A stretch of 61,340 nucleotides of DNA from an uncultured Candidatus Saccharibacteria bacterium (GTDB lineage: Bacteria; Patescibacteriota; UBA1384; XYA2-FULL-43-10; 1-14-0-10-43-13). A program made the position numbers and the translations under genes. The stretch is taken from positions 1-61,340 of the forward strand of contig CAZVMH010000006.1 of assembly GCA_964628585.1 (NCBI GenBank), read 5' to 3'. The notes below the pieces were generated by a model, which was given only the letters and a program-made list of their open reading frames with translations, was not told the DNA's origin and ran no database searches. Positions 3,601 to 33,605 of this stretch are shown in pieces. Numbering within the stretch: the stretch's first letter is position 1; every line of letters begins with the position of its first letter.

Positions 3601-5424
3601 ATGTATAAGAATTTTTTTATTAGGAACAAAACAAAACTTCTGGTCTTCGCCATTTTACTTTTTATGTTTTTAGTTGCCCTATTTTCTTCAAAGGGTGCTT
3701 TTGGCATACCAGGAGACTCCGGTACAACCGATGAAGTGGCTCACATACCTTCTGGCTATGCTTACGATAAATATCAAGATTACAGACTAAACCCAGAACA
3801 TCCGCCATTGGCTAAAGCTTTGGCAGGCCTTCCCCTTGTTTTACAGAAAAACATCAAAGGGCCAGAGGCCGATTGGAGTTGGAATGGTATAAATCAATGG
3901 GAGGCGGGTTGGTACACCATATATGAATCAGGAAATAATCCAGCTGATGTTTTGTTCTGGGCTCGTTTGCCCATGATGCTTTTGATGATAGTGCTTGGTC
4001 TATTTATTTTTAAGTGGGCTAAAGAGCTATATGGCGATAAAGTCGCACTATTAGTTTTACTTCTATACGCTTTCTACCCAGACGTGATTGCACATGGACG
4101 TCTAGTCACGACTGATATTGCGGCAGCCCTGGGTTTTGTTATCACAATTTACTTTTTTGATCGAGCACTCATTAATCAAACAAAAATTGATACTTTCTGG
4201 GCAGCTGTTGCTTTTGCTCTGGCTCAATCACTTAAGTTTTCTGCTTTTTTACTTTTCTTCGTACTTCTTATGATGATCATTATCAAAGCAATTTTGGAGA
4301 AATCAAAAGAAACAAAATTTTGGAAAACATTTTGGCCATACTTTAGAATTTATTTTTGGACCTGTTTTATCTCGGTTTTTCTAGTATGGCTTATATATAT
4401 TCCGTTTAGTTATAATACTCCACCTGAAATTGAACATAAAGTTATAGAAATGAATCTAACCACGGATCCAGCTACTTTACCGCTACGAAATTTCTTGCAT
4501 ATGTTTGAAAATAATCCAATCACCTTGGCACTCGGCCATTATCTATTGGGAGTTATATTGGTGGTAGCTAGGGTGGCGGGGGGTAATGCCACCTTTATCA
4601 TGGGACATCTTTCAGATAAATCAATTCCTTGGTATTTTCCGGTTGCTTGGCTGCTAAAGACACCGATTTCAATCATTGTTCTCTTCTTGTCATCGGTGGT
4701 CTACTTTATCTTTAAGAAGAAAAAAGACAAAAAAGATGCTTGGATTGCTAGTTTGATATTTTTACCTTTTTTGGTTTATTGGGGCTTCACTCTAAAAGGC
4801 TCGCTTAATATTGGAATTCGTCATTTAATGCCAACGGTACCATTTGTTCTTCTCGCGATCGGATATCTATTTAAACCGATATTTGATTCTAAAAAAATTA
4901 CTTTTCTAAAATCAGCTTCAGTAATTCTCATACTTTATATGATAATATCAGTGATGTCATACTATCCATCTTTTATTGGATATTTTAATGAATCAGTTCC
5001 AAGGAATGAGAGACATAAATATTTAATAGACTCTTCGCTAGATTGGGGGCAAGATCTTTTGAGGCTCAAAAAATATGTTAACGACAATAATATAAAAAAT
5101 ATTAAAGTTGATTATTTTGGCGGGTCACAACCAAATTATTATCTACCAGAATCAACACAATGGCGCAGTTCGTACGGACCAACAACAGGTTGGATTGCAG
5201 TTTCAGCTACTTTCTATCAGTCATCAAAATTATATGGTCCAATTGAAAATAAATGGTCGTATGAGTGGCTAGATAATATTAAACCAACAGCTATTATTGG
5301 CGGATCGATATTGGTCTACAACATTCCAGCTGATTATTTTATAAAAAATCCTCCAAAGGCGTCATATGAAATTAAAACAATCGAAAAACCAAAACCGATT
5401 GAAATTAGAAAGGTAGAATTATAA
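3601..5424 (+). CDS. GT-C fold membrane glycosyltransferase (PMT/ArnT-like)
   Basis: TTDEVAH, NPEHPPL, HGRLVTTD, K/FS motif, GIRHLMP and DSSLDWGQD; many TM helices. Confidence 0.82.
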   Translation: MYKNFFIRNKTKLLVFAILLFMFLVALFSSKGAFGIPGDSGTTDEVAHIPSGYAYDKYQDYRLNPEHPPLAKALAGLPLVLQKNIKGPEADWSWNGINQWEAGWYTIYESGNNPADVLFWARLPMMLLMIVLGLFIFKWAKELYGDKVALLVLLLYAFYPDVIAHGRLVTTDIAAALGFVITIYFFDRALINQTKIDTFWAAVAFALAQSLKFSAFLLFFVLLMMIIIKAILEKSKETKFWKTFWPYFRIYFWTCFISVFLVWLIYIPFSYNTPPEIEHKVIEMNLTTDPATLPLRNFLHMFENNPITLALGHYLLGVILVVARVAGGNATFIMGHLSDKSIPWYFPVAWLLKTPISIIVLFLSSVVYFIFKKKKDKKDAWIASLIFLPFLVYWGFTLKGSLNIGIRHLMPTVPFVLLAIGYLFKPIFDSKKITFLKSASVILILYMIISVMSYYPSFIGYFNESVPRNERHKYLIDSSLDWGQDLLRLKKYVNDNNIKNIKVDYFGGSQPNYYLPESTQWRSSYGPTTGWIAVSATFYQSSKLYGPIENKWSYEWLDNIKPTAIIGGSILVYNIPADYFIKNPPKASYEIKTIEKPKPIEIRKVEL

Positions 5425-6152
5425 TGCCAAAAGATTATTATGTTTCAATTGTAGTGCCTTGCTACAAAGAAGAAAAGCGGCTTTCCAAAATTTTTGAGGC
5501 AATTAAGGAATATAAAAAAGCGCATGATTTTACGATTGAAACAATTATTGTTATCGATGGTTCACCCGACAAAACGGCCGAAGTGGCCAAAGAACAGGCA
5601 AAAGGAATGACCGATGTTAAAATAATTGATCGAAAAGAAAACAGGGGAAAAGGATATACAGTAAAAGAAGGAGTAGAAAATGCTACGGGTCAATACATCC
5701 TTTTTACCGATGCAGACAATTCAACACCGCTTGAACAGCTTGATAAATTACTAAAATATATTGAAATTTATCCTGTCGCAATTGGTTCTCGCTATTGTGA
5801 TGGTGGAAAGTTGGCTCATCCACAACCTTTGCAGCGAATAATTGGCGGAAGAGTATTGAATGCCATAATTCAACTTTTAGCAGTTCGAGGGATTAAGGAC
5901 ACTCAATGTGGTTTTAAGCTTTTTGAAAAGAAAGCAGGAAAAGAGATTTTCAAAAGAGCGACTTTCGAAAGATTTTCTTTTGACATTGAGATTTTAGCTA
6001 TCGCTCGTAAATTGGGTTATAAGGTTAAAGAGGTTGGTATAACCTGGTACGACGACCCTCATTCAACAGTTGACCCTATAAAAGATGGTTTGCGGATGAT
6101 AAAAGACTCTTGGATGGTTAGAAAAAATATTACTCAAAAAAAATATAAATAA
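5424..6152 (+). CDS. Polyprenol-phosphate glycosyltransferase (DPG/DPM synthase-like GT2)
   Basis: SIVVPCYKE, IDGSPD, NRGKG, FTDAD, DTQCGFKLF, FSFDIEIL. Confidence 0.88.
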   Translation: MPKDYYVSIVVPCYKEEKRLSKIFEAIKEYKKAHDFTIETIIVIDGSPDKTAEVAKEQAKGMTDVKIIDRKENRGKGYTVKEGVENATGQYILFTDADNSTPLEQLDKLLKYIEIYPVAIGSRYCDGGKLAHPQPLQRIIGGRVLNAIIQLLAVRGIKDTQCGFKLFEKKAGKEIFKRATFERFSFDIEILAIARKLGYKVKEVGITWYDDPHSTVDPIKDGLRMIKDSWMVRKNITQKKYK

Positions 6153-6156
6153 TTTG

Positions 6157-6194
6157 AACTAAAAAACGACTATTTCAATAGTCGTTTTTTAGTT
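6157..6194. terminator. Bidirectional terminator-like hairpin
   Basis: 18-bp perfect inverted repeat AACTAAAAAACGACTATT/AATAGTCGTTTTTTAGTT between convergent units. Confidence 0.75.
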
Positions 6195-6213
6195 TACATT
6201 GAACAAAGTGAAA

Positions 6214-6231
6214 TGGAGCGGGTAAGGGGAG
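6214..6231 (-). repeat. 18-bp duplication of the tRNA-Gly(TCC) 3' end
   Basis: TGGAGCGGGTAAGGGGAG is identical to 6388..6405. Confidence 0.85.
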
Positions 6232-6387
6232 GCGAACACGCTAATTTCTATATTTCGCTTATAGAAACCCACGGTTTCTATTCTTTTCCTCCAACGGGAA
6301 ACTACCGTTTCCCGACCCCTTCCCTGGTCCGACTCCCTTTTTTGTTTATTCCAAAATAAAGACACCACTTACGTGATGTTCTCATTT

Positions 6388-6462
6388 TGGAGCGGGTAAG
6401 GGGAGTCGGACCCCTGTCTCGAGTTTGGAAAACTCGCATAATAACCGTTATACTATACCCGC
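6388..6462 (-). tRNA. tRNA-Gly(TCC)
   Basis: GCGGGTA/TACCCGC acceptor stem, CGAGT-TTTCCAA-ACTCG anticodon arm, CCA end. Confidence 0.95.
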
Positions 6463-6466
6463 AATA

Positions 6467-6847
6467 TTAAATTAATATTTTTTTATTTTTTTTCAAACTC
6501 GTAATTTTTTTGAGAGAACATTCTTTGCATCTGTATTCTGGGTTTTCGTCTTCTGTCCTGTCATATCCGCCTGGTGCAACAACCAAGCGCCTTACAGAAT
6601 CTTTTTTGCCACAATCAGCGCAAACTCCTTTTTTCAAAATTTCCCATTTCTCGATTGCTTTGCTCTTGAAAATAAATCGATCAATCCAGAAAAAAATGCA
6701 TCCTCCGATTAAATTGGCAACAGTTGCAGCAACCCAGTCTTCTCTTGTTCCCATTATTGAAGGAGAATGTTTAAAAAATGCTACGGCAGGCGCCAGGATT
6801 AAGGTCGAAAGTTGCCACCTAATCAAATAAAGAATAAATTTCAGCAT
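6467..6847 (-). CDS. Hypothetical membrane protein with CxxC...CxxC motif
   Basis: N-terminal TM segments, CADC and CKEC; AAGGA RBS directly after the att repeat. Confidence 0.7.
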   Translation of the reverse strand: MLKFILYLIRWQLSTLILAPAVAFFKHSPSIMGTREDWVAATVANLIGGCIFFWIDRFIFKSKAIEKWEILKKGVCADCGKKDSVRRLVVAPGGYDRTEDENPEYRCKECSLKKITSLKKNKKILI

Positions 6848-6862
6848 TTGTTTCCTTTGGAG

Positions 6863-6870
6863 TGGTACCC
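6863..6870. repeat. Left att core TGGTACCC
   Basis: Identical to the last 8 nt of tRNA-Arg(TCT); followed by ATTCGAAC at 6884-6891, which echoes the T-loop. Confidence 0.75.
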
Positions 6871-6948
6871 TTGATGCACTTTCATTCGAACACCTTTTGG
6901 CCTGGTTGGACCAACTTAGGCGTGCATATAACCGAACCGAACCGAATA

Positions 6949-7161
6949 TTAAAGAATATCAAGAGACTTAATATGAAGAGCTTTCATTATGCTCTGTATT
7001 TTTGCGAGCGAAGGATTAATTTCTCCTCTTTCAATGCGAGCATAATAGCTAACATTGATACCCGCTTTCATGGCGATATCCGCTTGAGTCAAACCGGCTT
7101 TTTCCCGAATATTCTTCAGTTTTTCGCCAAACTGTTTTTGAGCTTTATCATTATTAACCAT
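6949..7161 (-). CDS. XRE-family HTH regulator
   Basis: FGEKLKNIREKAGLTQADIA...YYARIERGEINPSL; probable start 7161 (track start 7179). Confidence 0.9.
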   Translation of the reverse strand: MVNNDKAQKQFGEKLKNIREKAGLTQADIAMKAGINVSYYARIERGEINPSLAKIQSIMKALHIKSLDIL

Positions 7162-7222
7162 ATGTGGATAACATAGCAAATTTTATCAACAATTTCCAGC
7201 TTAATTTATAAAAAGGAGGAGT

Positions 7223-7903
7223 ATGGTTTCACAGACACATTCATTTAAAGAGCACTTAACAAGAAGACAGACGATCATTGATCAAGAGAAGTCGGCTGCG
7301 CAAAATGCAGAATTGTTCAATGAAAAAACTTTCTACCGCTCATTTATCAAGGATTTATTTGAAGCTAAGAGGGAGGTAATAATCTACAGCCCCTTTATCA
7401 CTAAACATAGAACCGACTTCTATAAAAATATTATTGAGAAATTAAGGAAAAGAAACATCGAGGTCTTTATTTTCACCCGGCCGATTGAAGAATACAGCTC
7501 GATATTGCAGCCACAGATCGAATGTGCACTTAAGCGATATGAAGAGATGGGAGTTTGTGTTTTTTATCTTGGAAAATATATTCATGAAAAGGCGGCGATC
7601 ATTGACCGTGAAATCCTATGGGAAGGGAGCTTGAACATCCTCGCTCATAGGGCAGGTAATGAAATGATGAGAAGAATACGAGATGAAGATTCTGCTATGC
7701 AGGTCATTTCTCATATCGGTTTAAACAAGAAGCTGGAGGAAGGATATAAACAAAGGTATGAAAAGTTATGCAGAAATTTGATCGACAATTCCAGGCGAAA
7801 TATTAAACAAAAAATCTGCCTTTTCGCTCTTGGGCTATCGATTCCCCTCCTTATCTGGTGGTTGATTTTCTTTTCAAAGACCGTGATTGGCTGGATTAAT
7901 TAA
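7223..7903 (+). CDS. Single-HKD phospholipase D/nuclease-domain protein with C-terminal TM helix
   Basis: IYSPFIT and HEKAAIID-REILWE-GSLN (HxK-x4-D-x6-GSxN); hydrophobic C-terminus. Confidence 0.82.
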   Translation: MVSQTHSFKEHLTRRQTIIDQEKSAAQNAELFNEKTFYRSFIKDLFEAKREVIIYSPFITKHRTDFYKNIIEKLRKRNIEVFIFTRPIEEYSSILQPQIECALKRYEEMGVCVFYLGKYIHEKAAIIDREILWEGSLNILAHRAGNEMMRRIRDEDSAMQVISHIGLNKKLEEGYKQRYEKLCRNLIDNSRRNIKQKICLFALGLSIPLLIWWLIFFSKTVIGWIN

Positions 7904-8058
7904 CTTTTATCTTTTGGAATCGGTTTGTAAACTAGTTTGAAAAATTGAAGCCAATTTAAAGCCATGCTTTCTGCTTCTTCATAACTTGGTTTTATGCCTC
8001 GCTTTTTCTCAATAAGGGCTTGAAAATCCTCTACGGCTTTTTTAGATAATTCAGTCAT
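7900..8058 (-). CDS. 52-aa hypothetical protein missing from the ORF track
   Basis: MTELSKKAVEDFQALIEKKRGIKPSYEEAESMALNWLQFFKLVYKPIPKDKS; starts 3 nt after the DUF2971 stop. Confidence 0.65.
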   Translation of the reverse strand: MTELSKKAVEDFQALIEKKRGIKPSYEEAESMALNWLQFFKLVYKPIPKDKS

Positions 8059-8061
8059 ATT

Positions 8062-8805
8062 TTAATATATAGGTGGGTGATGGGCTTTTAATATTGAATC
8101 CTTGAATTTGTTTACCATTTTGTATCGTGTAAGCAATTCTCTTACTTTCTGATTGAAATGTTTATCAGAAAATGGAGAAATAATCACTTCATCAATTAAA
8201 TTATTGGTATCTATTGGTATGTTAATGCCTTTTGGCATCTTAATACTTCCGCTGATAATGCCATCGATATCTATCATTCTTTCTTTAACAATTCGGAATT
8301 CTCTTTCACTGGCGAATTCTTTCCTTTTACAAAAAAATGGAGCAAATGCATTACCTTCACTAACTAGATCTTGTTGATAATCAATATAATGAATTGGCCC
8401 TAAAAGAAAAGAAGATTCCTCATCTAATATGTAATTCTTAATCTTCGAAATTGTTGTCGTAATAGCAATAGCCTTCCCTTTATCAACGTATGATTGCCAC
8501 ATGTGAATATTTTCATCATTATTTACATGCCAACATGAAATGTATGTGCATTTCTTTAAATTGAAGTTTATTTTTGGCATTGTGTTTTCTATCCAACCAG
8601 TAGCCTCTTCTCCGTAAAATGTTTTACGAAATTCCTTTGCTTTAGCAGTATAAGACCCTTCATGTTGATCGTCGAATAAATCGCTTCTGCAAAAATAAAG
8701 CGCGTTATCCCTGATAAGGAATTCTAGCTTTTCTAGCGATATATAGCGCCATAATTTCTTATCGATATTATCTGGTATTTTAAAATGAAGGTGTTGTTTT
8801 ATCAT
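8062..8805 (-). CDS. DUF2971-like protein
   Basis: LWRYISLEK...LYF, YISCWH...MWQSY, KRKEFASEREFRI. Confidence 0.7.
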   Translation of the reverse strand: MIKQHLHFKIPDNIDKKLWRYISLEKLEFLIRDNALYFCRSDLFDDQHEGSYTAKAKEFRKTFYGEEATGWIENTMPKINFNLKKCTYISCWHVNNDENIHMWQSYVDKGKAIAITTTISKIKNYILDEESSFLLGPIHYIDYQQDLVSEGNAFAPFFCKRKEFASEREFRIVKERMIDIDGIISGSIKMPKGINIPIDTNNLIDEVIISPFSDKHFNQKVRELLTRYKMVNKFKDSILKAHHPPIY

Positions 8806-8831: not shown

Positions 8832-9056
8832 TTAGTATTCTTTATCAACCAGACGTTCATACTGAGACATAGAAAAATATTTAGCGCACTCTTGATTATT
8901 ACATTTGGCAAATTGGCCGGATTCCCTTGCTCCCTGCAAGCTGGAAATGAATCCGGTTTTAGTAACGATCTCTCCGCATTTGTCACAAGACTTGTACTTC
9001 ATGGCAATAGTTATCTTAGCAGTAAAGCTAGAACCAATTCCAGAGGCATAATTCAA
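8832..9056 (-). CDS. Small putative zinc-finger protein
   Basis: CDKC and CNNQEC; overlaps the upstream gene stop; start uncertain. Confidence 0.55.
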   Translation of the reverse strand: MNYASGIGSSFTAKITIAMKYKSCDKCGEIVTKTGFISSLQGARESGQFAKCNNQECAKYFSMSQYERLVDKEY

Positions 9057-10051
9057 GAAAACAGCTTTATCTTACTTGTGTCTAGTTTTTGCCAATCTTG
9101 GGCATAATTAAAGATCTCTTCATCTGAATATTTGTGTTGCTTTTTAATATGCTTAGAGATTTTGTGCTTGGGAAACCTTCTCTGAAATTCCAGCGCCGCT
9201 AAATGATAATACTCGGAAGAATCAGATACCCAGCCGAATTTTTCAGCAATCTCTAATGGGACTCCAGGGAAGACAGCAAGTTGTTCCGTGGCCTCGCCTT
9301 TTTTAACGCCTTCTCTTGAAACATTAACATTTGCAAGTCCAACTTCTTCATCTGTAAAATCGGGCCGAGGCTGGCTAACGAAAGCGAAATTACTGAACAT
9401 TCGCTCAAGTTGCACTTCAGCATCCCGTAACCAATTCAAGAAGATTTTAATGAAAGCTTTATGCTCTTTGCCCTCAATGATTTCTTCATAATAATAATCA
9501 ATTTTTTTCTGCGGCAAAATATTGTTTGGGTCTTGCTTAATTTCCGCTTTGCCAATAGATCCAATAATTGTCCAGGCCTCCTGTGGAAGATCCCTGGCAG
9601 TCTTGATTTTGCCTTCTTCAATTCTCTCCTCCAAATACTTATGTGCTTTATCACGAAAGTCCTTCGGTGTTTTCCCGTACATAACCAAAAATTCAACTGG
9701 AGCCGTCAGGTGTTCTTTGTCAGAGAAAGCAAGGCCGGGACTAGAAAATGCTTTGTAAAAATTAAATGTTTTTGTGATGATAATATTTTTGGTTGATTCT
9801 TTTTTAATCAAATAATATGCCAGATAATAAAGAAGCGGGAATAATCCCATCCAGTAATATGATTCTTCGTTGAAGATTAAAAACTCTCCTCCCGCAAACA
9901 TTAAAATGGCGCAAGAAAGAAGAAAATATTTTCTTTTCTTGCTGTTAAAAAAAGAGGGACGGTTTAAATCATCCTCATTTGCTTTCATATTATAGTATGT
10001 AAAAAGAAGTAAGGATACTAAGACTAAAAATGTTCCGGGAATAACAAGCAT
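9053..10051 (-). CDS. Hypothetical membrane-anchored protein
   Basis: Three N-terminal TM segments and a soluble C-terminal region; tightly packed in the operon. Confidence 0.7.
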   Translation of the reverse strand: MLVIPGTFLVLVSLLLFTYYNMKANEDDLNRPSFFNSKKRKYFLLSCAILMFAGGEFLIFNEESYYWMGLFPLLYYLAYYLIKKESTKNIIITKTFNFYKAFSSPGLAFSDKEHLTAPVEFLVMYGKTPKDFRDKAHKYLEERIEEGKIKTARDLPQEAWTIIGSIGKAEIKQDPNNILPQKKIDYYYEEIIEGKEHKAFIKIFLNWLRDAEVQLERMFSNFAFVSQPRPDFTDEEVGLANVNVSREGVKKGEATEQLAVFPGVPLEIAEKFGWVSDSSEYYHLAALEFQRRFPKHKISKHIKKQHKYSDEEIFNYAQDWQKLDTSKIKLFS

Positions 10052-10060
10052 AGCAAATCT

Positions 10061-10819
10061 CTATAAACTTATAACTTTTTTTACTGCGTTAATATAAGAA
10101 CAATAATCGCAATCTGGATTAGCTGATGGAATAGAACTAGAATCAAGGCAATTCTTCGCATCTTTTATAGTTTTCTCAATCCAGCTGTCGTTTCCCTTGT
10201 AAGGAATTAGGGTAAGATCGAATTCCAGCTTTGCGTCAAATACTTCTCTGTCTGTACAACCGTTGCAGTAAACAAAATAACCAGTATCAGATACTTTAAG
10301 GCCGTTCTGCCGCAGAAGCCACTGGTATATCTCCATTTGCCTCTTGTAGCCGTCCTGCCACTCTTTATTTAGCTCCGTGATTTCCTCATCCTTGCTGGTT
10401 GATTTATAATCCACAACAATATATTCGCCTTTCTCATTGATCCAAAGGTCATCTATCGCACCGGTAATCAAAAGATTGGTCGGCTTATGTAAGAACTGCA
10501 CGCCCTTAAAATTCTCCCGCCAGATATCCAGCTCCGCATGCTCCACCGGACGGGCATCAACGTCATATTTTTCAATTAATGGATGCTTCTCGCCCTTAGC
10601 TCGGTGAATATCAAACTCTTTCTTTAGAAGGCAATCAACTGCGCTATTCAAAGCAAACGGAAACCCAGGCGGTCGCCCTACTCCGAGCCGGCGGTCTAGA
10701 TAGAAACATCTGGGGCAATCGGTAAATAGCTCCAACTTCGACCGGCTTAGCTTAAACGCTTCGGCAGAGTTAGGGTTGTATAAATTTTTAGTTCTTTGGG
10801 AATTGTAGTATTCAGACAT
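10061..10819 (-). CDS. PD-(D/E)XK (RecB-like) nuclease family protein
   Basis: LSRSKL...DCPRCFY, GAIDDL...IVVDYKST, QMEIYQWLL, CDYC. Confidence 0.85.
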   Translation of the reverse strand: MSEYYNSQRTKNLYNPNSAEAFKLSRSKLELFTDCPRCFYLDRRLGVGRPPGFPFALNSAVDCLLKKEFDIHRAKGEKHPLIEKYDVDARPVEHAELDIWRENFKGVQFLHKPTNLLITGAIDDLWINEKGEYIVVDYKSTSKDEEITELNKEWQDGYKRQMEIYQWLLRQNGLKVSDTGYFVYCNGCTDREVFDAKLEFDLTLIPYKGNDSWIEKTIKDAKNCLDSSSIPSANPDCDYCSYINAVKKVISL

Positions 10820-10821
10820 AT

Positions 10822-11376
10822 TTATTCTTTCTTTTTTACTTCTTCTCTCTTAAGGCATTTAATTTTATCGGTGTTGAGCCCGCTTCCAGGGTTTAACTCA
10901 AAGAAGTAATATGGATCGAGTACATATATATAAAGTATAAGTACAGCGGATCCAATGAACAGACCTTTGTGCCAGCCGAAGATTAGAAGGCCTAATGCAT
11001 AAGCAATCGCATAATCACGAACGCAGTTCTTTCCTTTCCCGCCAATTAGCCAAATTACATCACAAATCAAAGAAAGAGCCCCGCCTAGATAAAACAACGG
11101 CAAGTTATTGACCATGAGCCCCCAAACAAGAAGGATTGCTCCGATCAATTTAACGAGCCGTCTCTTGTTTAACCGTTGAAATAGAAATAAAAGATACTGC
11201 CATTTTGAAAGTGTTAATTCAAAGCTCTTGCCCGGATGTTTTATAGAACTTGAAACTCTAAGGATGTAATGGATAATCTTATCGTTCTTGTCGACATCAT
11301 GGCCAATGACAATAGGCCGATCCATAAGATTGACCATCTTGTTATTAAGCTGAATTTCTTTAAGCCTTTTCATCAT
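10822..11376 (-). CDS. Hypothetical membrane protein
   Basis: Several hydrophobic helices in the C-terminal half; 2-3 nt gaps to both neighbours. Confidence 0.65.
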   Translation of the reverse strand: MMKRLKEIQLNNKMVNLMDRPIVIGHDVDKNDKIIHYILRVSSSIKHPGKSFELTLSKWQYLLFLFQRLNKRRLVKLIGAILLVWGLMVNNLPLFYLGGALSLICDVIWLIGGKGKNCVRDYAIAYALGLLIFGWHKGLFIGSAVLILYIYVLDPYYFFELNPGSGLNTDKIKCLKREEVKKKE

Positions 11377-11379
11377 GTT

Positions 11380-14300
11380 TTATTCCTTGCCCACCCAATC
11401 TTTGCAGACTGTCTCGGCCTGCAATAGCACCAATTGAGTTGCACCTTCCTGCTTGTCTGGCGGATAGTTATATTTTTTTAACAATTTTTTAATATAGATC
11501 CTCATTTTGGCTTTGATATTATCACGTAATGTCCAATCCACTGTGGCATTCTGGCGCATTAGTTGGACTAGCTCTTTAGCAATTTTCTTCAAAGTCTCAT
11601 CGCCAATCTCAAGTTTTGCACTTTCGTTCTCAGCTAAAGCATCATAAAAAGCAATCTCATCATCAGCAAGACCCGTATCTTTGCCTCTTTCAACTTCTCC
11701 CTTTATTTCCTTGGCCAAATCAATCAAGTCAGCAATCACTTGAGCGGCTTCAATTGTTCGGTTTTGATAAGCTTTTATCGTCTTCTCCAGCATTTCAGCA
11801 AAAGAACGCCCCTTGATCATATTCTTTCGCATAAAAGATTTGATTTCATCATTTAAGAGTTTCTTCAAAATCTCAAGGGCTACATTCTTTCTGCCAAGTC
11901 CACGCACTTCTTCCAAAAATTCATCGGACAAGATCGCAACATCGGGCTTGTCCAGTCCGGCTGCCTTAAAAACATCAATAATTTCATCGGAAGCTATCGA
12001 ATCAGATACTATTTGTTTTATTGCTAAGTCGTAATCATCTTCGGTCGGCCCACTAACTGGAGAGATTTTTCTCACATATGCTTTCAACGCTTGAAAAAAG
12101 CCAACATGGTCTTTAATTACCAAAGCTTTTTCGTTCGGCACAGATAATGCGAAAGCTTTTGATAATTCCGTGACCGCCTTATTAAATCTTTTCTTGGCTT
12201 CTTCGTCGTCTGGATCAAGGGTTAAAACAAATTCCATGGCGTCACCGAAGAAGCTGGTTTTTGCTGAGGGGCTCATCTTAAAATATTTTTCATATCCGAA
12301 GTCATGAAACATTCCCTGCATTACTTCAAACTTCTCAAGCATTATTGAAACGGCCTGTTCCTGGTCAATTGCTGTATTTTCCTGATCATTTTGCGAATAC
12401 TCCGCCAATGCCTCTTTCAATTGTGGTGCAATGCCTAAATAGTCAACAATTAATCCGCCCGGCTTGTTTTTGTAGACTCTATTCACTCGAGCAATAGCCT
12501 GCATCAAACCGTGGCCTTTCATAGGCTTGTCGATATACATAGTGTGCAAGCTGGGCACATCAAAACCGGTCAACCACATATCGCGTACAATGACCAACTG
12601 CATTTCATCAGTTGGGTCTTTCATTCGATCAGCCATTTTGCCCAGTTCTTCTTTATTGCGGATATGCTTTTGAAAATTTAATGGATCAGAGGCGGAACCA
12701 GTCATCACTACCTTCAGAAAACCTTTTTTATCCGAATCATTGTGCCATTCTGGTTTGAGCTTGATAATTTCTTCATATAAATCAACTGCAATTCGCCGGC
12801 TCATCACAACAATCATACCCTTGCCATTCATCACATCAAGGCGATTGCCAAAATGTTCCACAATATCTTTGGCGATTTGCTTGATTCTCTTTTCACTTCC
12901 GACCATTGCCTCAAGTCTTGCCCATTTACTCTTTAATTTATTCACTAGTTCTGGTTCCTCATCCTCCATAATTTCATTGAAATCTGAATCAATCTTTGGC
13001 TTTTCTGATTCCAGTAATTGGATTTTAGCCAGTCTTGCTTCGTAGAAAATAGGAACTGTCGCTTTGTCGGCTACTGCTTGGGTAATGTCATAGACATCAA
13101 CATAGTCACCAAAGACTGCTTTAGTATTTTTGTCTGAGAGCTCAATAGGTGTTCCGGTAAAACCGATAAAAGAAGCATTGGGCAGTGATTCGCGCATGCT
13201 TTTAGCATAACCATCAATAAAATCGTACTGGCTACGATGGGCTTCATCGGCAATCACAACGACATTTCGTCGATCAGTCAGAAGCATTTTTTCTAAAAAT
13301 CCTTTTTGCAAAAATTTCTGAATGGTTGTAAATACGACTCCTCCGCTAGCAACTTTCAAAAGCTCGCGTAAATGACGACGGTTTTTTGCTTGAATTGGAG
13401 TTTGCTTTAATAAATCTTTGCATTTAGTGAATGTGTCAGCCAGCTGTTGATCCAAGTCATTTCTATCAGTCAAAACCACTAGCGTTGGATTATTTAAAGC
13501 GTCAATCAACTTGCCGGCGTAAAAAGCCATGGTCAAGCTTTTGCCCGATCCTTGAGTATGCCAAACAACTCCGGCTCGTCTGTCACCATCTTTTGATGTA
13601 GCCTCAATTGTGCTTTCCAGAGCCTTATTTGTTGCGAAGTATTGATGATAGGCTGGAATAATCTTAATAGTCCGTTCCTCACTATCCTTTTTTGTTGTAT
13701 TAAAAACAATAAAATTGCAAACGATATCAAGAAATCTCTTTTTATCAAATACCCCTTTTATTAAGGTTTCCAATTGCGGAATTAAATCAGATGCTAACTC
13801 ATTTCCTTCAATACTTCTCCAACGCATGAAACGATCTGTGTCAGAAGTAATAGAGCCAACTTTCGCCTCCGAGCCATCGGAAATTATCGCCAGCTCATTA
13901 AAGACAAACAATGAGGGAATATCTTGCTTATATGTTTGAATTTGATTAAAAGCTTCTTTGATCCCAACATTTTCATCTGCCAAATTTTTTAACTCAAAAA
14001 CTGCTAATGGCAAACCATTTACAAATATAACAACATCGGGACGGCGATTTGAATTCTCAACAACCGTAAACTGATTCAGCCAGACCCAATCATTGTTCTC
14101 AATAGTTTTTCGGTCAATCAACCAAACTTTATCGCCAGCAATCGAACCACCTTTTCTTTGATATTCAACATCTATCCCGTTGACTAAATATCTATGAAAA
14201 ATCTGATTATTGGAGACCAAAAGCGATGTGGCATTAGCCACATTTACTACTTTTTTGAAGGCTTCGTCCAAAGCATCGGCTGGAATATTAGGATTTATTC

Positions 14301-14466
14301 GCCCGATAGCATCTCGAAGCCGCCCTTCCAAAACGACTTGAGAAAAATCCTTCCGTTCCGGCTTTTCACTTTCAGGCTCAATGTCCGGTCCGTAGATGGT
14401 TGGATAGCCAAGTTCCTCAAACCATTCTCTTGTTGCTTCTTCTAGTGATGATTCGGTGTATTTCAT
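11380..14466 (-). CDS. hsdR: Type I restriction enzyme R subunit
   Basis: [18 protein letters not shown] nuclease motif, [37 protein letters not shown]; ATG at 14466 after AAGGAAG (track start 14505). Confidence 0.96.
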
Positions 14467-14476
14467 ATTACTTCCT

Positions 14477-16051
14477 TTATTCATATTTATCTGCCATGTC
14501 CTCAACAGTAAAATTTTCTATTTTAATCTTCTCATAAGGCCAAAAATACATGACGCTTTTTAAATCCTTTAAAAACTTAATAAAAAATTCGGGCCAGATT
14601 TCTTTCTGGCATTCATTGTAAAAGTCGTTCCTAGAAGCTAGCCCTAATTCCTGCAACGAGATAGCAAGATTTTTTTTCAGCTCATCGTTTGATTCTTCGT
14701 AAAAAAAATCTTTGACAATCTCTCTTCGAGTATTATTTCCATATTTACCCAAAAGCAGCGCGTAAAGAGATCTTATGGCCCAATGATTATTTCTGTCTTT
14801 AAAACGATCTACAAAGAGATCTAAACTTTCCTCATTAAAAGAATTGGCGGTTTCCAATAGACCTCTTAATACATGCAATTCCTGCCATTCATAGATTCTA
14901 TCATCTGCCTTGATGTAGTTTATAAAAAACTCCCTTACTTTGCTTTCTGGAAATTGAACCAAGAACTCGCAAAATATTTGTCCAAGATGAGGCTTATTGT
15001 GAAACTCTTCCATTATTTTGTTAACTATTGTACTGCAATCAATATCAATTCCGCTATTTTTAATTATTGAGAGTCTAAAAAGCGCAAATTTGATGTGCCT
15101 ATCTCCAAACCTGTTGTTTTTATCAAAAGCATTTACAAATAAATTTTTTAGAACAGGCACTATCGTTTTTATTTTAGTTTTATTCCTTGTATCAATAATA
15201 TTCTGTATGATGTTTAGAATTTCTCTATTGTCGTCGAACAACGACATTACTTCCTGTTGTTTTAATATTCTGGTTTTTTTAGCATTAATATTTAATTTAT
15301 ATTTCCGAAGTTCTTTAATTAATTTTATTAAGGATATTTTTGCTTCAATCTCTGTTTTGCAAAAGATGTGGATGTCGTCCATGTAACGAATATACCCCTC
15401 TATGTGCTCCATTGACTGGTCAACATTGTCTAAGTACAAATCGCCAAGGTAACTTGATGCTTGCGGCCCTTGAGGCAAACCAAAGTTTTTGAGCCTGCCA
15501 GCACTCCATTTATACAAGATCTTATTAAAGAGCAAATCTATCGAGGCTTTAAGCTTTTCATCATCGGGAATATGGTTATATATTTTCGAACGTAATTCTA
15601 TTAGGTTGATGTTCTCAAAATACCCAGAAATATCTGTCGTTACACAAAATACAAATCCTTTCTTGAAAAGAGTTGAAGAATCTTCATCGAATTGTTTCCA
15701 AGCATTAATTTTGCTCGATTTATTTTTAAAATTCCGGACACTGTAGCTTCTATTACTTAACTTGTCTATCGTATTTTTCATTATTTCATCAGTAATAAAT
15801 TGATAAATTACCCAATCCCGCACTTCGGGTCTGGCCATGGGCCTGATTGTAAAATTTTCTTTTGGCACATCTATTCTGTAGAGCTCCTTCGCTACATATT
15901 CACTGTCTGCGATCATCTTTATAATTTCCTCTGCATTACTGTCTTTCTTGGAATGCAGATAAGAAAATCTTAGTGGATCTGGAATAGGATTGTTCCCGCG
16001 TTGGTCTTCCTTTAATATCTTTAAAATGGATTCTTCTATATTTCTTTTCAC
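14477..16051 (-). CDS. Reverse transcriptase, UG/Abi (DRT)-like, with alpha-helical C-terminal region
   Basis: [45 protein letters not shown], then about 230 aa of helical repeat-like sequence. Confidence 0.88.
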
Positions 16052-17298
16052 TTCACCCTCAACTTTCCGCTCATTAATCTTGGTAAAAGAGAATCGCGGA
16101 TTTGCGATAAGATTTCGATTTCTTGCATATTGAAGACAACTTTTTTAACTAGTAAATTTGCAGTTATACCAAAAGACAATAAAGCATCGCTGCTTGGGAT
16201 ATTCAGCTCTATGTTTGCGGTTTCAATAGGACTTAGGTTTTGCTGTGCAGTACCCTTGGATATCGATATTAAATAGTTTTGAAATTCTCTATTTCTGAAC
16301 AAAAAATATGTAAACCCATAATTTCTTGTGTCCACAGGCGAAAGTTTTGCAACGCGCTGGTTTAGAAGATACTTATCGTGTCCGAAGACAAGGCAGCTCC
16401 TCCCTACATTTCCGGTTAATGATAAAATAATATCGCCAACTTTCAAGTGAGCATAGTCAGGCACTTTAGCAAGTATATTGGTTATTCTATTAGCACAGAT
16501 TGAACTGAAATTACCATCCTGGACATTTTTGATGGTAACCAGCCCGTAAATACCTTTGTCGTCAAAACAGGCGCTTGAGAACGAGAATCCGGAGAGAACT
16601 TTTATTAAGTCACCAAGCCGAGTATTGCCCGCAGTTAGAATCTCACCAAAAGTATTATTAAAATAAACTTGACCAAGGGATTCGAGGGTTTTAATCATTT
16701 TCTGATTCAATTCAATTTTTTCATCCAGTGTCCCTAATATCTTTGCAATTTGTAGCTGTTCCTGTATTGGTGGAAAAGCAAACTCCAATGATTTTATTTG
16801 ATCCGGGCTGATATTGGCTTGGTTGCCGCTTCCTTTTGCGCTAGATACCAACAAAAATTTAACTTCATCAGAAATTAAAAGATAATATAGGAAATCCTTA
16901 CATAATCTAGTTTTATCTTTTACCTCGAACTTACCGACCCTCTGGTTAAGTAGGGCAATTCGCTCTCTGTTTCTTAGCCGCCCTATCTTTCCTACGGCCG
17001 ACTGATACTGATTAAAATTAGACCCAGTTAAGGAAATTAAAATGTCATTATATCGAACCTCATAACCGCCGAGCTTTTCTGACAACATTTTATCTGCATA
17101 CTCTACTTCAGTTAAATCAACAACTGGCGGGATAATATTTTTTATTTTAATTATCGGCACTCCGCTACTGACAAATTCATTGCTCTTAAAAGCATAGCCC
17201 GATTTAATGTCAGCAATATCGCTTAACTTTAAAATTTCCCAATCTTCAGGAATTAGACCGAGTTCGGTTTGCTTAAATTGTGTTTGGCTATTTTGCAT
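16048..17298 (-). CDS. hsdS: Type I R-M specificity subunit
   Basis: Two TRDs separated by PPIQEQLQIAKILGTLDEKIELNQKMIKTLE; ends RDSLLPRLMSG. Confidence 0.93.
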   Translation of the reverse strand: MQNSQTQFKQTELGLIPEDWEILKLSDIADIKSGYAFKSNEFVSSGVPIIKIKNIIPPVVDLTEVEYADKMLSEKLGGYEVRYNDILISLTGSNFNQYQSAVGKIGRLRNRERIALLNQRVGKFEVKDKTRLCKDFLYYLLISDEVKFLLVSSAKGSGNQANISPDQIKSLEFAFPPIQEQLQIAKILGTLDEKIELNQKMIKTLESLGQVYFNNTFGEILTAGNTRLGDLIKVLSGFSFSSACFDDKGIYGLVTIKNVQDGNFSSICANRITNILAKVPDYAHLKVGDIILSLTGNVGRSCLVFGHDKYLLNQRVAKLSPVDTRNYGFTYFLFRNREFQNYLISISKGTAQQNLSPIETANIELNIPSSDALLSFGITANLLVKKVVFNMQEIEILSQIRDSLLPRLMSGKLRVK

Positions 17299-18046
17299 TG
17301 TTCCTCGTAATTAAATCATATGCCAGACTTGCCAACGAAATGTAATGAATGGCTAAATTTTTATCCATAGGACTTGCTGGAGTGTGAGCCTTTTCGTTTC
17401 TCAGAAATTGAATTGCCATATGTAAAAATTTTACGCCTTCAAAAAAATCCTTCTCGGGTTCATCGGAGGGTTCATGGCCAAAGATAATCTTGATGTTGCC
17501 AGCACAGAATGCATCGGTTGCTCTCTCCTGGCCGGTAATATCTTTTAGTCTTTTTCTAACAATTTTATATGATTCCTCAACTGCATGAAAATAGTTTTCA
17601 TTGGCTAAAAGTTCTTTAACGTGATCAAAAATATCAGCTTGTAGTAATATATTAATGTTTCCGTTTTCGAATGTAGCTTTTGACTTCCCCGCTGTTTTCC
17701 CAGTTGGATCATACAATCTATCTGCTATATCAAGTGCAGCAATTACCCTGTTAGGTGGGAAGTCTTCACTCGGCAAACCATCTATCAATGTTTGAGTCTT
17801 GATATATTCGATAAGGCCAACAATACTCTCAGAAACATCTCTATTTGTGGCTTTTAGCCAGAATCCTCGCATCCTGTTTGCTTTTGACCCAGAAGCATAA
17901 TTGTATTTTGGATTGTAAATGTCTATTTTGAGATCATCTCGAAAATATTCGCCGAAGGTCCTATCTGTAAAGTTCAAAACATAACCGCCACTCATTTGAA
18001 AAAGCTTTTCCAAGATTTGTTTTTCATTAGTTGTTAGATCAGCCAT
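17288..18046 (-). CDS. AbiJ-NTD-like domain fused to TIGR02391/Ymh-type HEPN-like domain
   Basis: N-terminal GGYVLNF...SGSKANRMRGFW; C-terminal YFHAVEES...RNEKAH (R-x4-H). Confidence 0.72.
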   Translation of the reverse strand: MADLTTNEKQILEKLFQMSGGYVLNFTDRTFGEYFRDDLKIDIYNPKYNYASGSKANRMRGFWLKATNRDVSESIVGLIEYIKTQTLIDGLPSEDFPPNRVIAALDIADRLYDPTGKTAGKSKATFENGNINILLQADIFDHVKELLANENYFHAVEESYKIVRKRLKDITGQERATDAFCAGNIKIIFGHEPSDEPEKDFFEGVKFLHMAIQFLRNEKAHTPASPMDKNLAIHYISLASLAYDLITRNNAK

Positions 18047-27438: not shown

Positions 27439-28725
27439 ATGAAAAGAATATTCTCAAAAATTATTCTTTTTTGTGGAATACTATTTCTCCCTGTTTCCGC
27501 TTATGCCGCTTCAAACCCCGAAGTTGAAAGCTTTACCCATGACGCCATGATCGCCCTGATCGGATTAGCTTCGGTTGCCGTTGTCTTCTTTCTGGTACGG
27601 GGAGCGTACCTGTATATAACCTCGAGTGGAGATCCGGCGGCACTGGACGAAGCAAAGCGGACTATCAGAAATGCCCTTATCGGATTGGTAATTGTTATAG
27701 GGGCAGCAGTTTTCAGCTCAATGCTTAACAGCGCAATGACAGAGCCTGCCAACAATGCTACCGGTACGGCTTTGACTTTAAGCGCAATCGAACCTGCTCC
27801 TCCTGATAATTCCCTTACCCAAGTTCTTCTGGATGCGATATCCGGTTTTCTGCAAAATATTATTCAGTCAGCCACCAAACCTCTCTTTGACGGAATCACC
27901 TGGTTTTTAACCTCTACGCCCCTTCTTTCCACCAATTCGGTTGTCTTTAATTTCTGGCTTGTTATGGTCGGTATCACCGATTCTCTCTTTGCTCTGGTAA
28001 TTGCCCTTCTGGGATTTAGGATAATGAGCACCTCAACTTTCGGGCTGGAAGAGATGACTTTGAAGGAAGTATGGCCTAAAATCGCCCTTGCCTTTGTCGG
28101 AGCCAATACCTCGATCTTTTTGATTGATTGGGTCATCCAGCTTTGCCAAGTCATGGTCAATGCAGTCCTTCATGCCACAGGCGGATTAGGACAGGCCTGG
28201 ATATTAAACGCTTTCGATCCGGCTGCCCTAGTTACCAATACGACAGCTCTCATAACTTTGATATTCATTATCATTTTTGTAATTCTGGCTGCCGTACTTC
28301 TGCTCTTCTATATCTCCCGTTTGATGATCCTGGCTTTCGGTGCCGTTATCTCGCCCTTTGTCTGCCTGCTTGCTCTAATTCCGAGCATGTCGGGCCTGGC
28401 CGCAAACCTAGCCAAAGCCTACTTTATTACTATTTTCACAGTCTTTATCCATGTTGTCATAATTCAGTTGGCCTCGGCTTTCTTAACCGCTCCCGGTCAA
28501 GTTGGAGCTAATCCGGTAGTTTCAATTTTAATCGGAGTCGCTCTTTTCTCAATCCTCTTAAAAAGTACTGCTACCGCCATTCAGCTTGCTCTTGCCAGCG
28601 GAACAACCAATTCAATTAAGAAATTCAGCGGACAGATTATGAATGTGATCAGTTCGGGAAATGTTTCCAATGTAAAGAATACGGTCAGCGCAAAAGAAGC
28701 GATTAAACAAGCGAGGGTCAAATGA
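27439..28725 (+). CDS. VirB6/TrbL-like channel protein with N-terminal pilin-like segment
   Basis: YITSSGDP pilin-like N-terminus followed by many TM helices. Confidence 0.72.
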   Translation: MKRIFSKIILFCGILFLPVSAYAASNPEVESFTHDAMIALIGLASVAVVFFLVRGAYLYITSSGDPAALDEAKRTIRNALIGLVIVIGAAVFSSMLNSAMTEPANNATGTALTLSAIEPAPPDNSLTQVLLDAISGFLQNIIQSATKPLFDGITWFLTSTPLLSTNSVVFNFWLVMVGITDSLFALVIALLGFRIMSTSTFGLEEMTLKEVWPKIALAFVGANTSIFLIDWVIQLCQVMVNAVLHATGGLGQAWILNAFDPAALVTNTTALITLIFIIIFVILAAVLLLFYISRLMILAFGAVISPFVCLLALIPSMSGLAANLAKAYFITIFTVFIHVVIIQLASAFLTAPGQVGANPVVSILIGVALFSILLKSTATAIQLALASGTTNSIKKFSGQIMNVISSGNVSNVKNTVSAKEAIKQARVK

Positions 28726-29225
28726 AAACTACCGTTGTACCCGCTCAAATCACAACCGTTGAAGATAGAATTGCCGGCAGTTTAACCCTGCCCCAGATTG
28801 TGCTGATGGTTATCTCCCTTGTGATCGGCGTAGTTATCTATGCCGGAATCCCGCCCAAAATGCACCTTAGCGCTTTCAAAATGACATTTATCGTGATCCA
28901 GTTCGCCGTGCTGGGAATATTAGCCATAAGGTTTAACGGCAAGATCGTGGCCGATTGGCTGATCATATTTCTGCGATATAAATCCAGACCCAATAAATAT
29001 GTTTTTACCAAGAATGATCTCATATATAGAGAAATCGTCGCTTCCAAAGAAGTTGCTAATAACAGGGAAAAACAAGTCAGCACAAACGAAAACAAAAAAT
29101 CCTCCAAGCCCTTAACCCTATTGGAGGAATTAAATCTAAAGAAGATTCTCGCCAGCGATTCACTATCTTTATCATTTAAGCCGTCGAAGAAAGGAGGAAT
29201 GGATGTTGCGCTCGAGCAAAAGTAA
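28722..29225 (+). CDS. PrgI/VirB3-like protein
   Basis: VPAQITTVEDRIAGSLT, two TM helices. Confidence 0.75.
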   Translation: MKTTVVPAQITTVEDRIAGSLTLPQIVLMVISLVIGVVIYAGIPPKMHLSAFKMTFIVIQFAVLGILAIRFNGKIVADWLIIFLRYKSRPNKYVFTKNDLIYREIVASKEVANNREKQVSTNENKKSSKPLTLLEELNLKKILASDSLSLSFKPSKKGGMDVALEQK

Positions 29226-29817
29226 AAATGGATCGGCCAGAACTCAAATCGGCATCAAAGAGGTCAGAGACGGCATCTTAATTCTGCCCGATAACTGCTA
29301 CCGCTCAATCCTCTCGACTTCATCCTTGAACTTCGAGCTTCAGAGTGAAGAAGAGCAGGATGTCGTGATCGATGCCTTTCAATCCTTTCTAAATAGCTTA
29401 ACAACATCGATTCAGATAATTGTCCGGGTTCGAGAGCTCGATATCGACCACTATCTTGAGGATTTCCAGGAGAAACTTAAAAATGAGAAGCAAAAGATTT
29501 ATGTAGATCAGCTGGCAAACTATAGCGACTTCATCCGAAAGCTGGTTTCGGGCAACAAGATTCTCTCCCGAAGATTCTATTTGGTAATTCCTCATGACAA
29601 CAAGGGCAAGGTTGATTTCCAAACTGCCAAGGAACAGCTCATGCTTGAGCAGGAGATTATCATTAAGGGATTAGAGAAGATCGGGATGACAGCAAGACAG
29701 CTTACATGCATAGAAATTCTAGACCTATTCTACAGCTATTACCGGCCGGAGCAGGCCAAGATTCAGCCTTTAGTTGAAGCATTAGTGAGGAAAACAAATG
29801 ATCAAAATTTTTTCTAA
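29203..29817 (+). CDS. T4SS-associated protein (VirB4 N-terminal/TraC-like)
   Basis: LNFELQSEEEQ...FLNSL...IQI...RRFYLVIP; located between prgI-like and virB4. Confidence 0.65.
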   Translation: MLRSSKSKNGSARTQIGIKEVRDGILILPDNCYRSILSTSSLNFELQSEEEQDVVIDAFQSFLNSLTTSIQIIVRVRELDIDHYLEDFQEKLKNEKQKIYVDQLANYSDFIRKLVSGNKILSRRFYLVIPHDNKGKVDFQTAKEQLMLEQEIIIKGLEKIGMTARQLTCIEILDLFYSYYRPEQAKIQPLVEALVRKTNDQNFF

Positions 29818-31594: not shown

Positions 31595-32205
31595 ACCCGC
31601 AAACTCTTAGATTGATCGCCCTCTCCTTTTCAATGAAGAAGGAGATTAAACTCATATTCTTTACTGTGGGAGTCCTCTGCCTCCTGCCGGTTTTTGCCGT
31701 CATTATCTTAACCCAAGCGGGCTTTAATTTTGTTTCCGATACTCTGGCCTCAATCAATCCCACAACTTTGCTGGTAGAGATCCATGACCCTGCTGACGGC
31801 TCAATCATTGAAGTCATCACCGAACCGAGGATCTGGCCTACTGTTGGCAATGTTACATTGGAGTTTTCCCAAAGATCGCCCTATCAGCTCTTTCATACCG
31901 GTATTGATATTGCAGGGCCTACAGGAGAGCCGGTCGGGGCTTTTATGAAAGGAACGGTCATCTATGCCGATGAAACGATCACAGGCTTCGGCAAACATGT
32001 CAAAATAGATCATGGCCATCATATAGTTACTATCTATGGTCACTTGGATTCTATTGCCGTACAAGAAGGCCAGGAGGTTGATATAGGTACAGTCGTAGGC
32101 ACCAGAGGAGATACCGGCTGGTCAACAGGGCCTCATCTTCACTTTCAAACAAATGTATTCGGAATACCGGTCAATCCGAGGGTGTTTTTGACGGGGAGTC
32201 CATAA
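31591..32205 (+). CDS. M23 family peptidase
   Basis: HTGID (HxxxD), YGHL, GPHLHF (HxH); N-terminal TM. Confidence 0.88.
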   Translation: MNPQTLRLIALSFSMKKEIKLIFFTVGVLCLLPVFAVIILTQAGFNFVSDTLASINPTTLLVEIHDPADGSIIEVITEPRIWPTVGNVTLEFSQRSPYQLFHTGIDIAGPTGEPVGAFMKGTVIYADETITGFGKHVKIDHGHHIVTIYGHLDSIAVQEGQEVDIGTVVGTRGDTGWSTGPHLHFQTNVFGIPVNPRVFLTGSP

Positions 32206-32303
32206 AAACAAAAAGCCAGAGAAATCAATTATTTAATTGCTCTGGCCTTGCCCTGCTTGTCCTGGTTGGGACTACAGGGCTCGGTTTGGGAAAGACGGTC
32301 CCG

Positions 32304-33032: not shown

Positions 33033-33219
33033 GTCTTTATTCCTTGCCCTTTTCCCCCTTGGGCGCGAGGATATCAGATGGTTCGTATTATACCATGCAT
33101 TCGATTAAAAAGCAATACCCTAGCAAAAATTATATGAACAATAAGACCTCGGTTTCTCATAACAGAATAGGTGTTCGGTTTAACCTCTATAGGACTAAAT
33201 AATTTATCGAACACTTTGC

Positions 33220-33264
33220 TTGACAGGTGTTCATATATGGATATATACTATCCATATATGAACA
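33220..33264 (+). promoter_or_regulatory. Promoter overlapped by a 16-bp perfect inverted repeat
   Basis: TTGACA(33220)-18-TATACT; TGTTCATATATGGATA-N5-TATCCATATATGAACA at 33228-33264. Confidence 0.65.
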
Positions 33265-33278
33265 TAACGGAGGGATAG

Positions 33279-33602: not shown

Positions 33603-33605
33603 AAA

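Follow-up and report, generated by a model that had tools for sequence, protein, structure and literature searches.

Among the reverse transcriptases (RTs) of the unknown group/abortive infection (UG/Abi) type, the defence-associated RTs DRT4 and DRT6 are encoded by single genes and form hexamers; they produce random single-stranded DNA (ssDNA) constitutively, with a tyrosine as primer, and this product becomes toxic once a phage DNA-binding protein shields it from the host exonucleases (PMC12783706). AbiK, AbiA and Abi-P2 make untemplated DNA that is linked to the protein (PMC9508834). As for the group named UG21, it belongs to Class 1 of UG/Abi and combines an RT domain with HEAT-like α-repeats; a preprint on UG/Abi, in which "operonization with a type I R-M system" (R-M, restriction-modification) was a criterion, had it among the predicted defence groups, and the journal version moved it to "inconclusive" (Mestre 2022, PMC9226505). 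Defence genes have been described as lying within operons of the Type I R-M, BREX and DISARM systems, an arrangement that has been turned into a "guilt-by-embedding" strategy of discovery, with PrrC, "almost exclusively" embedded, contrasted with systems that rarely are (Payne 2024); TgvAB is an R-M-embedded defence system that has been tested experimentally. The RT gene considered here comes from an uncultured Candidatus Saccharibacteria bacterium and lies between hsdS and hsdR in a window of 61,340 nucleotides (nt), that is, the whole stretch of DNA analysed (contig CAZVMH010000006.1 of assembly GCA_964628585.1); its product is a Class 1 DRT-type RT from an uncultured lineage, and the gene itself is cargo within a Type I R-M operon.

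Regarding its integrity, the RT is intact and its catalytic motifs are complete: TDISGYFE at residues 139-146, GLPQG at 191-195 and YMDD at 223-226 (15385..15374 in the window), with D140, D225 and D226 invariant across the family alignment. The protein has 148 homologs at E<=1e-5, and 51 columns are invariant in an alignment of 32 sequences; the open reading frame (ORF) is a genuine gene and not a chance ORF. Pfam RVT_1 matches it at 2.9e-19, and the best PADLOC model is RT_UG21 (2.3e-78, 262 bits; residues 12-484 against positions 13-488 of the 503 in the model), followed by UG9, UG32, UG23, UG20 and UG19, so that all the strong matches are Class 1 UG groups. UG21 is also the top model for each of the 32 aligned relatives (32/32), with a family-best E-value of 8.3e-94; the enzyme is termed here "UG21-like", and not UG21, because its score on this model is well under those that true members of UG9 and UG19 obtain on their own.

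A sequence search of the PDB with the RT returned no close solved relative, and for this reason a fold search was used, starting from an AlphaFold2 model for which the 32-sequence alignment served as input (mean pLDDT 90.9, pTM 0.89). In the model, the RT domain (residues ~55-270) is followed by consecutive helices (~265-495), of which ~275-495 make up the α-helical repeat domain, and then by a C-terminal tail that is conserved and holds the invariant Y502, its last ~15 residues being of low confidence. The best full-length matches found with Foldseek in the PDB were DRT4/UG15, DRT6, AbiK, AbiA and Abi-P2, with TM scores of ~0.5-0.6, and the group II intron RTs aligned to the RT domain only. 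Judged by profile matches and by this predicted structure, the RT belongs to Class 1 of the UG/Abi enzymes and has a C-terminal α-helical repeat (alphaRep/HEAT-like) domain.

Compared with the described systems, the RT shares with the UG21 group the single ORF and the C-terminus of HEAT-like α-repeats joined to the RT domain, with no fused effector domain. With DRT4 and DRT6 it has in common the RT plus α-repeat architecture, the single gene, the lack of a non-coding RNA (ncRNA) and the catalytic YxDD; it differs from both in sequence (16-17% identity) and in context, DRT4 and DRT6 not being reported as R-M-embedded, and its family has no conserved tyrosine in the region expected to match the priming Tyr125 of DRT4, as judged by sequence position and not by alignment. 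AbiK, AbiA and Abi-P2 (PMC9508834, PMC11077055) have an equivalent fold, and by analogy the RT would be expected to share their untemplated, protein-primed chemistry and their role in phage defence; its sequence is very divergent from theirs, the hosts and the mobile-element contexts differ, and the HEPN domain of AbiA is missing.

The RT gene is tightly packed between its two neighbours. At the hsdS/RT junction, read on the minus strand (...TTGAGGGTGAAGTGAAAAGA), the TGA of hsdS (16050..16048) overlaps the GTG of the RT (16051..16049), and an overlap of equivalent type, ATGA, is present in the homologous locus L083; at the RT/hsdR junction (...TATGAATAAAGGAAGTAATATGAAATAC), the TAA of the RT (14479..14477) is followed by 10 nt containing AGGAAG and then by the ATG of hsdR at 14466. 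The non-coding flank beside the RT is zero both in the window and in L083. Translational coupling of the RT to hsdS and hsdR is likely given the 4-nt overlap and the 10-nt spacer, and the arrangement is consistent with co-transcription with hsdM, hsdS, hsdR and the other embedded genes on one polycistronic mRNA; a promoter and terminator scan of the operon gave counts close to the shuffle expectation. Much of this had been claimed in a preliminary description of the locus, namely an intact 524-residue RT with its catalytic motifs between hsdS and hsdR, of UG/Abi kind and with a long helical C-terminus, a start overlapping the hsdS stop (GTGA), a 10-nt gap with the ribosome-binding site of hsdR, coupling within the R-M operon, and no room for an intron RNA, an msr-msd or the template of a diversity-generating retroelement (DGR). 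These claims stand: the ORF and its translation (on the minus strand, a detail absent from that description), the all-helical C-terminal half of the model, the overlap at 16051..16048, the AGGAAG between TAA and ATG, the RT_UG21 match and the fold matches to DRT4, DRT6 and AbiK all agree with them, as do the absent non-coding flank and the absence of any Rfam match beside the gene, and the packing is tight enough for co-transcription and probably for translational coupling.

To place the locus among its relatives, RTs were gathered from a one-genome-per-species set, JGI metagenomes and exact-protein look-ups; ORFs were called, HsdM, HsdS and HsdR were labelled by iterated hidden Markov models seeded from the window, and the RTs were collapsed at 90% identity, the survey units being the informative clusters, 45 for the UG21-like clade and 78 for other UG RTs from the same scans. 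Hsd genes are present on both sides of the RT in 6 of the 45 UG21-like clusters and on one side, at a distance of two genes or fewer, in 8, with 31 having none; the corresponding values for the other UG RTs are 0, 6 and 72. The difference has a Fisher p of 0.0017 for any linkage (14/45 vs 6/78) and of 0.0019 for embedding (6/45 vs 0/78). Two one-sided cases are Type IIG Eco57I/MmeI-like fusions and not Type I systems. Two loci are outside the count: L086 (RT, HEPN-like, HsdS, GmrSD), merged with a near-identical RT cluster, and L174, in which a 47%-identical RT homolog lies between an N6_N4 methylase gene, with a 17-nt overlap, and, where the contig stops, a ResIII-type gene (4059..7945), apparently a Type III mod-RT-res arrangement. 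Including both, the R-M-linked total is ~16/45 (~36%), and about two thirds of the clade is unlinked.

Within the linked loci, the position of the RT varies, being between S and R, between M and S, before M or after R. The orders found are S-RT-R (the window and L083), M-RT-x-S-R-KAP with an R of the EcoEI type (L169), M-RT-S-NYN-R-YgjP (L172), M-(Fic or HATPase_c_4)-RT-S-R-YgjP (L008, L107 and L111), RT-M-S-S-GmrSD-R (L100) and R-x-RT (the L005 group). The R-M partner varies too, with HsdR of both the T1RH-like_C and EcoEI_R_C families, the Type III mod-RT-res arrangement and Type IIG, and across 64 close loci no partner gene recurs besides the Hsd genes. The closest homolog of the window RT is P0002 (61% identical), a stand-alone RT found in locus L081; in a neighbour-joining tree, R-M-linked and unlinked loci are interspersed, and L081 is nested in the clade of the window and L083. 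The RT of L081 is 68% identical to that of L083 and of equal length, embedded and stand-alone copies being alike in architecture. RTs P0018, P0019, P0021 and P0030 are stand-alone as well, and in a complete 695-kb Nealsonbacteria genome the RT copy is away from any R-M system. Neighbours at the other loci include GmrSD, Fic, RhuM, HEPN, AbiEi, NYN, KAP NTPase, Type IIG and Type III R-M genes, and a DISARM-like SNF2 with a DUF1156 methylase. Among viral contigs (IMG/VR) there were no close relatives of the RT and only two distant matches; a phage or prophage origin is unlikely given this result.

Information on the slot itself came from the comparison with related operons. The HsdR of the window is 85% identical to that of L083, and the RT only 60%. 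P0122, which of all HsdR proteins in the database searched is nearest to that of the window (87%) and is annotated to a metagenome-assembled genome of Patescibacteria, lies in a sister operon, L178, with the order hsdM - Fic - trypsin-like (PDC-S45-like) - hsdS - 275-aa gene - hsdR - PD-(D/E)XK, and the PD-(D/E)XK protein encoded directly after hsdR is 79% identical to that of the window. The slot that holds the RT in the window is occupied in L178 (9177..10004, plus strand) by the gene of a 275-aa protein, joined to both hsdS and hsdR by 4-nt overlaps, for which no RT similarity and no Pfam or PADLOC family was found. Since this gene is overlapped as the RT is, the tight coupling belongs to the slot, for which the RT is one cargo among several; the same is indicated by the mostly unlinked relatives and by their varied position and R-M type, which, with the unrelated gene in the sister slot, identify the RT as swappable embedded cargo. 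Thus, in one lineage of Type I R-M operons, both the M/S and the S/R junction serve as slots for exchangeable cargo (the RT, the 275-aa gene, DUF3800 with Ymh, Fic with a protease), and uncharacterised genes in these slots are therefore good defence candidates, the 275-aa gene being a candidate of this kind by "guilt-by-embedding". The RT resembles PrrC, RloC, TgvAB and the PDC candidates of Payne 2024 in being a foreign gene packed closely, and in the same orientation, among hsd genes, and another embedded gene of its operon matches PDC-M04A and a neighbour PDC-S31; it has no homology with PrrC or RloC, which combine an ABC ATPase with an anticodon nuclease, and unlike PrrC it is mostly outside R-M operons.

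On balance, the RT is probably a Class 1 UG/Abi defence polymerase that works autonomously as a single protein and sits in the hsdS/hsdR slot as interchangeable cargo. If it worked as DRT4, DRT6, AbiK, AbiA and Abi-P2 do, it would oligomerise, prime on one of its own tyrosines and make untemplated ssDNA, left covalently attached to the protein; during phage infection, the activity or its product would become toxic, or would sequester phage ssDNA-binding or annealing proteins, and the infection would be aborted. Carried by an operon on what looks like an integrative and conjugative element (ICE) in a Patescibacteria-type genome, and co-expressed with the R-M system, it could constitute a second, independent layer against phages that escape restriction, linked to R-M by co-expression and co-transfer, without depending on the Hsd proteins physically or for its regulation. 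As for the priming residue, three tyrosines are invariant in the family and are candidates, Y220 beside YMDD, Y387 in the α-repeat and Y502 in the C-terminal tail; Y220 is probably structural.

Several points weigh against this interpretation. The clade scores 260-310 bits on the UG21 model, compared with 367-683 bits for true UG9 and UG19 members on their own models; this clade, mostly uncultured and rich in members of the candidate phyla radiation (CPR), may be a sister group to UG21 with differing properties. The defence role of UG21, and by analogy that of this clade, is a predicted one, graded "inconclusive" in the journal version of the UG/Abi work (Mestre 2022, PMC9226505), and, as each solved relative has its priming tyrosine at a different place, homology does not point to the residue that primes here. 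Expression of the RT and its translational coupling are inferred from the sequence, and some functional synergy with restriction may exist, since the R-M linkage is higher than that of other UG RTs.

The last point leads to two explanations that assign the Hsd genes a part in the function of the RT, and both appear unlikely. The first was advanced in the preliminary description, which saw in the RT a guard of the R-M system: as with PrrC, the Type I complex would hold the RT inactive, and the RT would fire when an anti-restriction protein of a phage, such as Ocr or ArdA, disables the complex. The gene prrC sits between hsdS and hsdR in EcoprrI, the position that the RT occupies in the window with tight coupling; in addition, R-M linkage is enriched over other UG RTs, embedding within the sample occurs in the UG21-like clade only, and in the sub-clade of L095, L107, L111, L005 and L112 all the loci that show a neighbour gene are R-M-linked. 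However, the same description had named homologs mostly unlinked to hsd genes as the outcome that speaks against a guard, and this is what was found: 31 of the 45 relatives lack an Hsd gene at a distance of two genes or fewer, and the closest homolog is stand-alone, whereas PrrC is almost exclusively embedded (Payne 2024). Moreover, neither the position of the RT nor its R-M partner is constant (two HsdR families, Type III and Type IIG), embedded and stand-alone copies share their architecture, the sister operon L178 holds a different gene in the slot, and the solved relatives function as single-gene systems. The second explanation, to which we give just as little credit, is that UG21-like RTs are functionally tuned to restriction and are triggered or potentiated by its activity or its inhibition; the signal might be DNA ends or ssDNA produced by the HsdR/Res translocases, or anti-restriction proteins. 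Such tuning, if true, would account for about one third of the lineages being in Type I, III or IIG R-M systems and for the other sampled UG RTs never being embedded.

Still less probable than these is an RNA-templated RT, of the kind of DRT2, DRT9 and DRT10, the template of which would lie concealed within the operon mRNA, for instance in the coding sequence of the hsdS 3' end or the hsdR 5' end. An ncRNA is required by some UG RTs, DRT9 is among the structural matches, and some stand-alone homologs have gaps of 170-330 nt downstream of the RT; against this, the window and L083 have zero non-coding flank, the family shows no conservation of the sequences that flank the RT, no Rfam match was found beside the RT, and the best matches, both in sequence and in structure, are Class 1 untemplated enzymes. 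Finally, it is very improbable, and largely refuted, that the RT has no defence role and either derives from or still belongs to a selfish retroelement (a DGR, a retron or a group II intron) or serves in DNA repair as G2L4-like RTs do: the RT domain does align with group II intron RTs (TIGR04416 at 105.6 bits, and group II RT matches in the PDB), but that score is far under the cut-off of 300 bits, the protein lacks both a maturase X and an endonuclease domain, intron, msr-msd and template/variable repeat (TR/VR) sequences are all absent, the C-terminal domain is the α-repeat of Class 1 UG/Abi, the genomic context is one of defence genes, and viral contigs hold no close relatives.

The individual retroelement classes were rejected on the same lines, in agreement with the preliminary description, and a search of the window with Rfam recognised neither a group II intron nor a retron, nor any other RNA that goes with RTs. 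For a group II intron RT/maturase, both the sub-threshold TIGR04416 score and the lack of intron RNA and of non-coding flank are contrary; for a retron, the 4-nt overlap upstream and the 10-nt gap downstream are, and retron RTs are weak PDB matches (E ~3e-3); for a DGR, there are no long direct repeats in 5.8-36.5 kb, no TR/VR-like repeats and no space beside the RT.

As for novelty, the preliminary description did not recognise the pairing of RT and R-M as described, which is correct in part: in the literature search, neither an experimental test of UG21 nor a systematic account of its R-M linkage was found, papers with hsdR or hsdS together with "reverse transcriptase" being mostly strain genotypes, but embedding in Type I R-M as such is already published (Payne 2024, TgvAB). 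The RT within the operon and the linkage of about one third of an under-sampled, CPR-rich clade give fresh support to a defence role of UG21-type enzymes, and the operon offers a compact construct for experiments. The locus also indicates that small-genome organisms of Patescibacteria type carry layered defences on a conjugative island. The picture of DRT and R-M biology is unchanged, unless the hypothesis of coupling is true.

The RT is part of a co-directional, tightly packed array on the minus strand, with the order hsdM, DUF3800, Ymh, hsdS, RT, hsdR, 184-aa gene, PD-(D/E)XK and 332-aa gene (Table 1). Based on full-length Pfam and PADLOC matches for hsdM, hsdS and hsdR, the Type I R-M operon appears complete. 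The window HsdR has the length (1028 aa) of its 85-87% identical homologs (L083, P0122), and the ORF finder probably erred in taking the TTG at 14505 as the start. The Ymh gene overlaps the start of hsdS by 11 nt. The G+C content is 33.0% for the RT, 35.9% for DUF3800 and 36.8% for Ymh, against 42.5% for hsdM and 39.7% for hsdR, which is weak evidence for a cargo origin of the embedded genes. After hsdR, the 184-aa gene is probably additional inserted cargo since it is missing from the sister operon L178, and the PD-(D/E)XK nuclease, to judge from its counterpart in L178, has been conserved alongside hsdR in this lineage. Beyond the array, the PDC-S31-like and PLD-like genes are probably further defence cargo.

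Table 1. Coordinates in the window of the RT gene, its operon and the adjoining genes
Feature	Position	Strand	Basis or remark
RT, UG21-like Class 1 UG/Abi	14477..16051	minus	ORF and translation, 524 aa, GTG start
Catalytic YMDD codons (residues 223-226)	15374..15385	minus	D225 and D226 invariant in the 32-sequence alignment
hsdS stop/RT start overlap, GTGA	16048..16051	minus	GAGG 5 nt upstream of GTG
RT-hsdR spacer, AGGAAGTAAT, 10 nt	14467..14476	minus	carries the hsdR Shine-Dalgarno sequence
hsdM, Type I methyltransferase, first gene of the array	18879..20402	minus	Pfam HsdM_N and N6_Mtase 3e-109; PADLOC MTase_I 8e-231
Embedded DUF3800 gene (PDC-M04A-like), hsdM/hsdS slot	18249..18878	minus	Pfam 3.7e-17; PADLOC PDC-M04A 2e-10
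Embedded Hypoth_Ymh/TIGR02391 gene (PD-Lambda-3_B-like), hsdM/hsdS slot	17288..18046	minus	Pfam 1.8e-15; NCBIfam 4e-28; PADLOC 1.3e-6
hsdS, two target-recognition domains	16048..17298	minus	Pfam Methylase_S 3.5e-33, 2 stretches; PADLOC Specificity_I 5e-67
hsdR, 1028 aa from ATG 14466	11380..14466	minus	Pfam HSDR_N, SWI2_SNF2, T1R_D3-like, T1RH-like_C; PADLOC REase_I 1114 bits
184-aa gene, 3 nt after hsdR	10822..11376	minus	no Pfam, PADLOC or NCBIfam match
PD-(D/E)XK/Cas4-like nuclease	10061..10819	minus	Pfam PDDEXK_1 1.2e-16
332-aa gene, last in the packed array	9053..10051	minus	ORF; no family match (Pfam, PADLOC, NCBIfam)
PDC-S31-like (DUF2971) gene, beyond the array after a gap, tRNA-Gly side	8062..8805	minus	Pfam, PADLOC
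PLD-like nuclease-family gene, tRNA-Gly side of the array	7223..7903	plus	
TrwB/HerA-type coupling protein	20600-23260		ICE-like module
Replic_Relax	23350-24105		ICE-like module
Type IV secretion system pilin/TrbL	27439-28725		ICE-like module
TraG/VirB4-like ATPase	29798-31594		ICE-like module
Large serine recombinase	33606-35219		abuts tRNA-Arg (35114-35189)

In the 202-nt gap between the DUF3800 and Ymh genes, on the strand opposite to the operon, there is a DUF3800-IX RNA motif (RF02968; 18157..18221, plus), with a gathering-level Rfam match of 39.7 bits (E 5.7e-5).

The defence array is adjoined by an ICE-like conjugative module (~20600..35219), in which PrgI and an M23 peptidase are also present and which probably carries the R-M island as cargo. 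The G+C content is elevated to 0.44-0.49 across 26-34 kb of the window. On the other side, a 24-nt direct repeat (6214..6237 and 6388..6411) matches the 3' end of tRNA-Gly(tcc) with 92% identity and lies 174 nt from the tRNA; it could be the remnant of an att site at the left edge of the island. A small chromosome of CPR type is suggested by the best HsdR matches, which are annotated to Patescibacteria, taken together with further features: the window encodes a surface-type protein of 2093 aa with fn3 and Big domains (49102..55383, minus) and a tmRNA (57609..57997, minus), and eleven tRNA genes are distributed across it.

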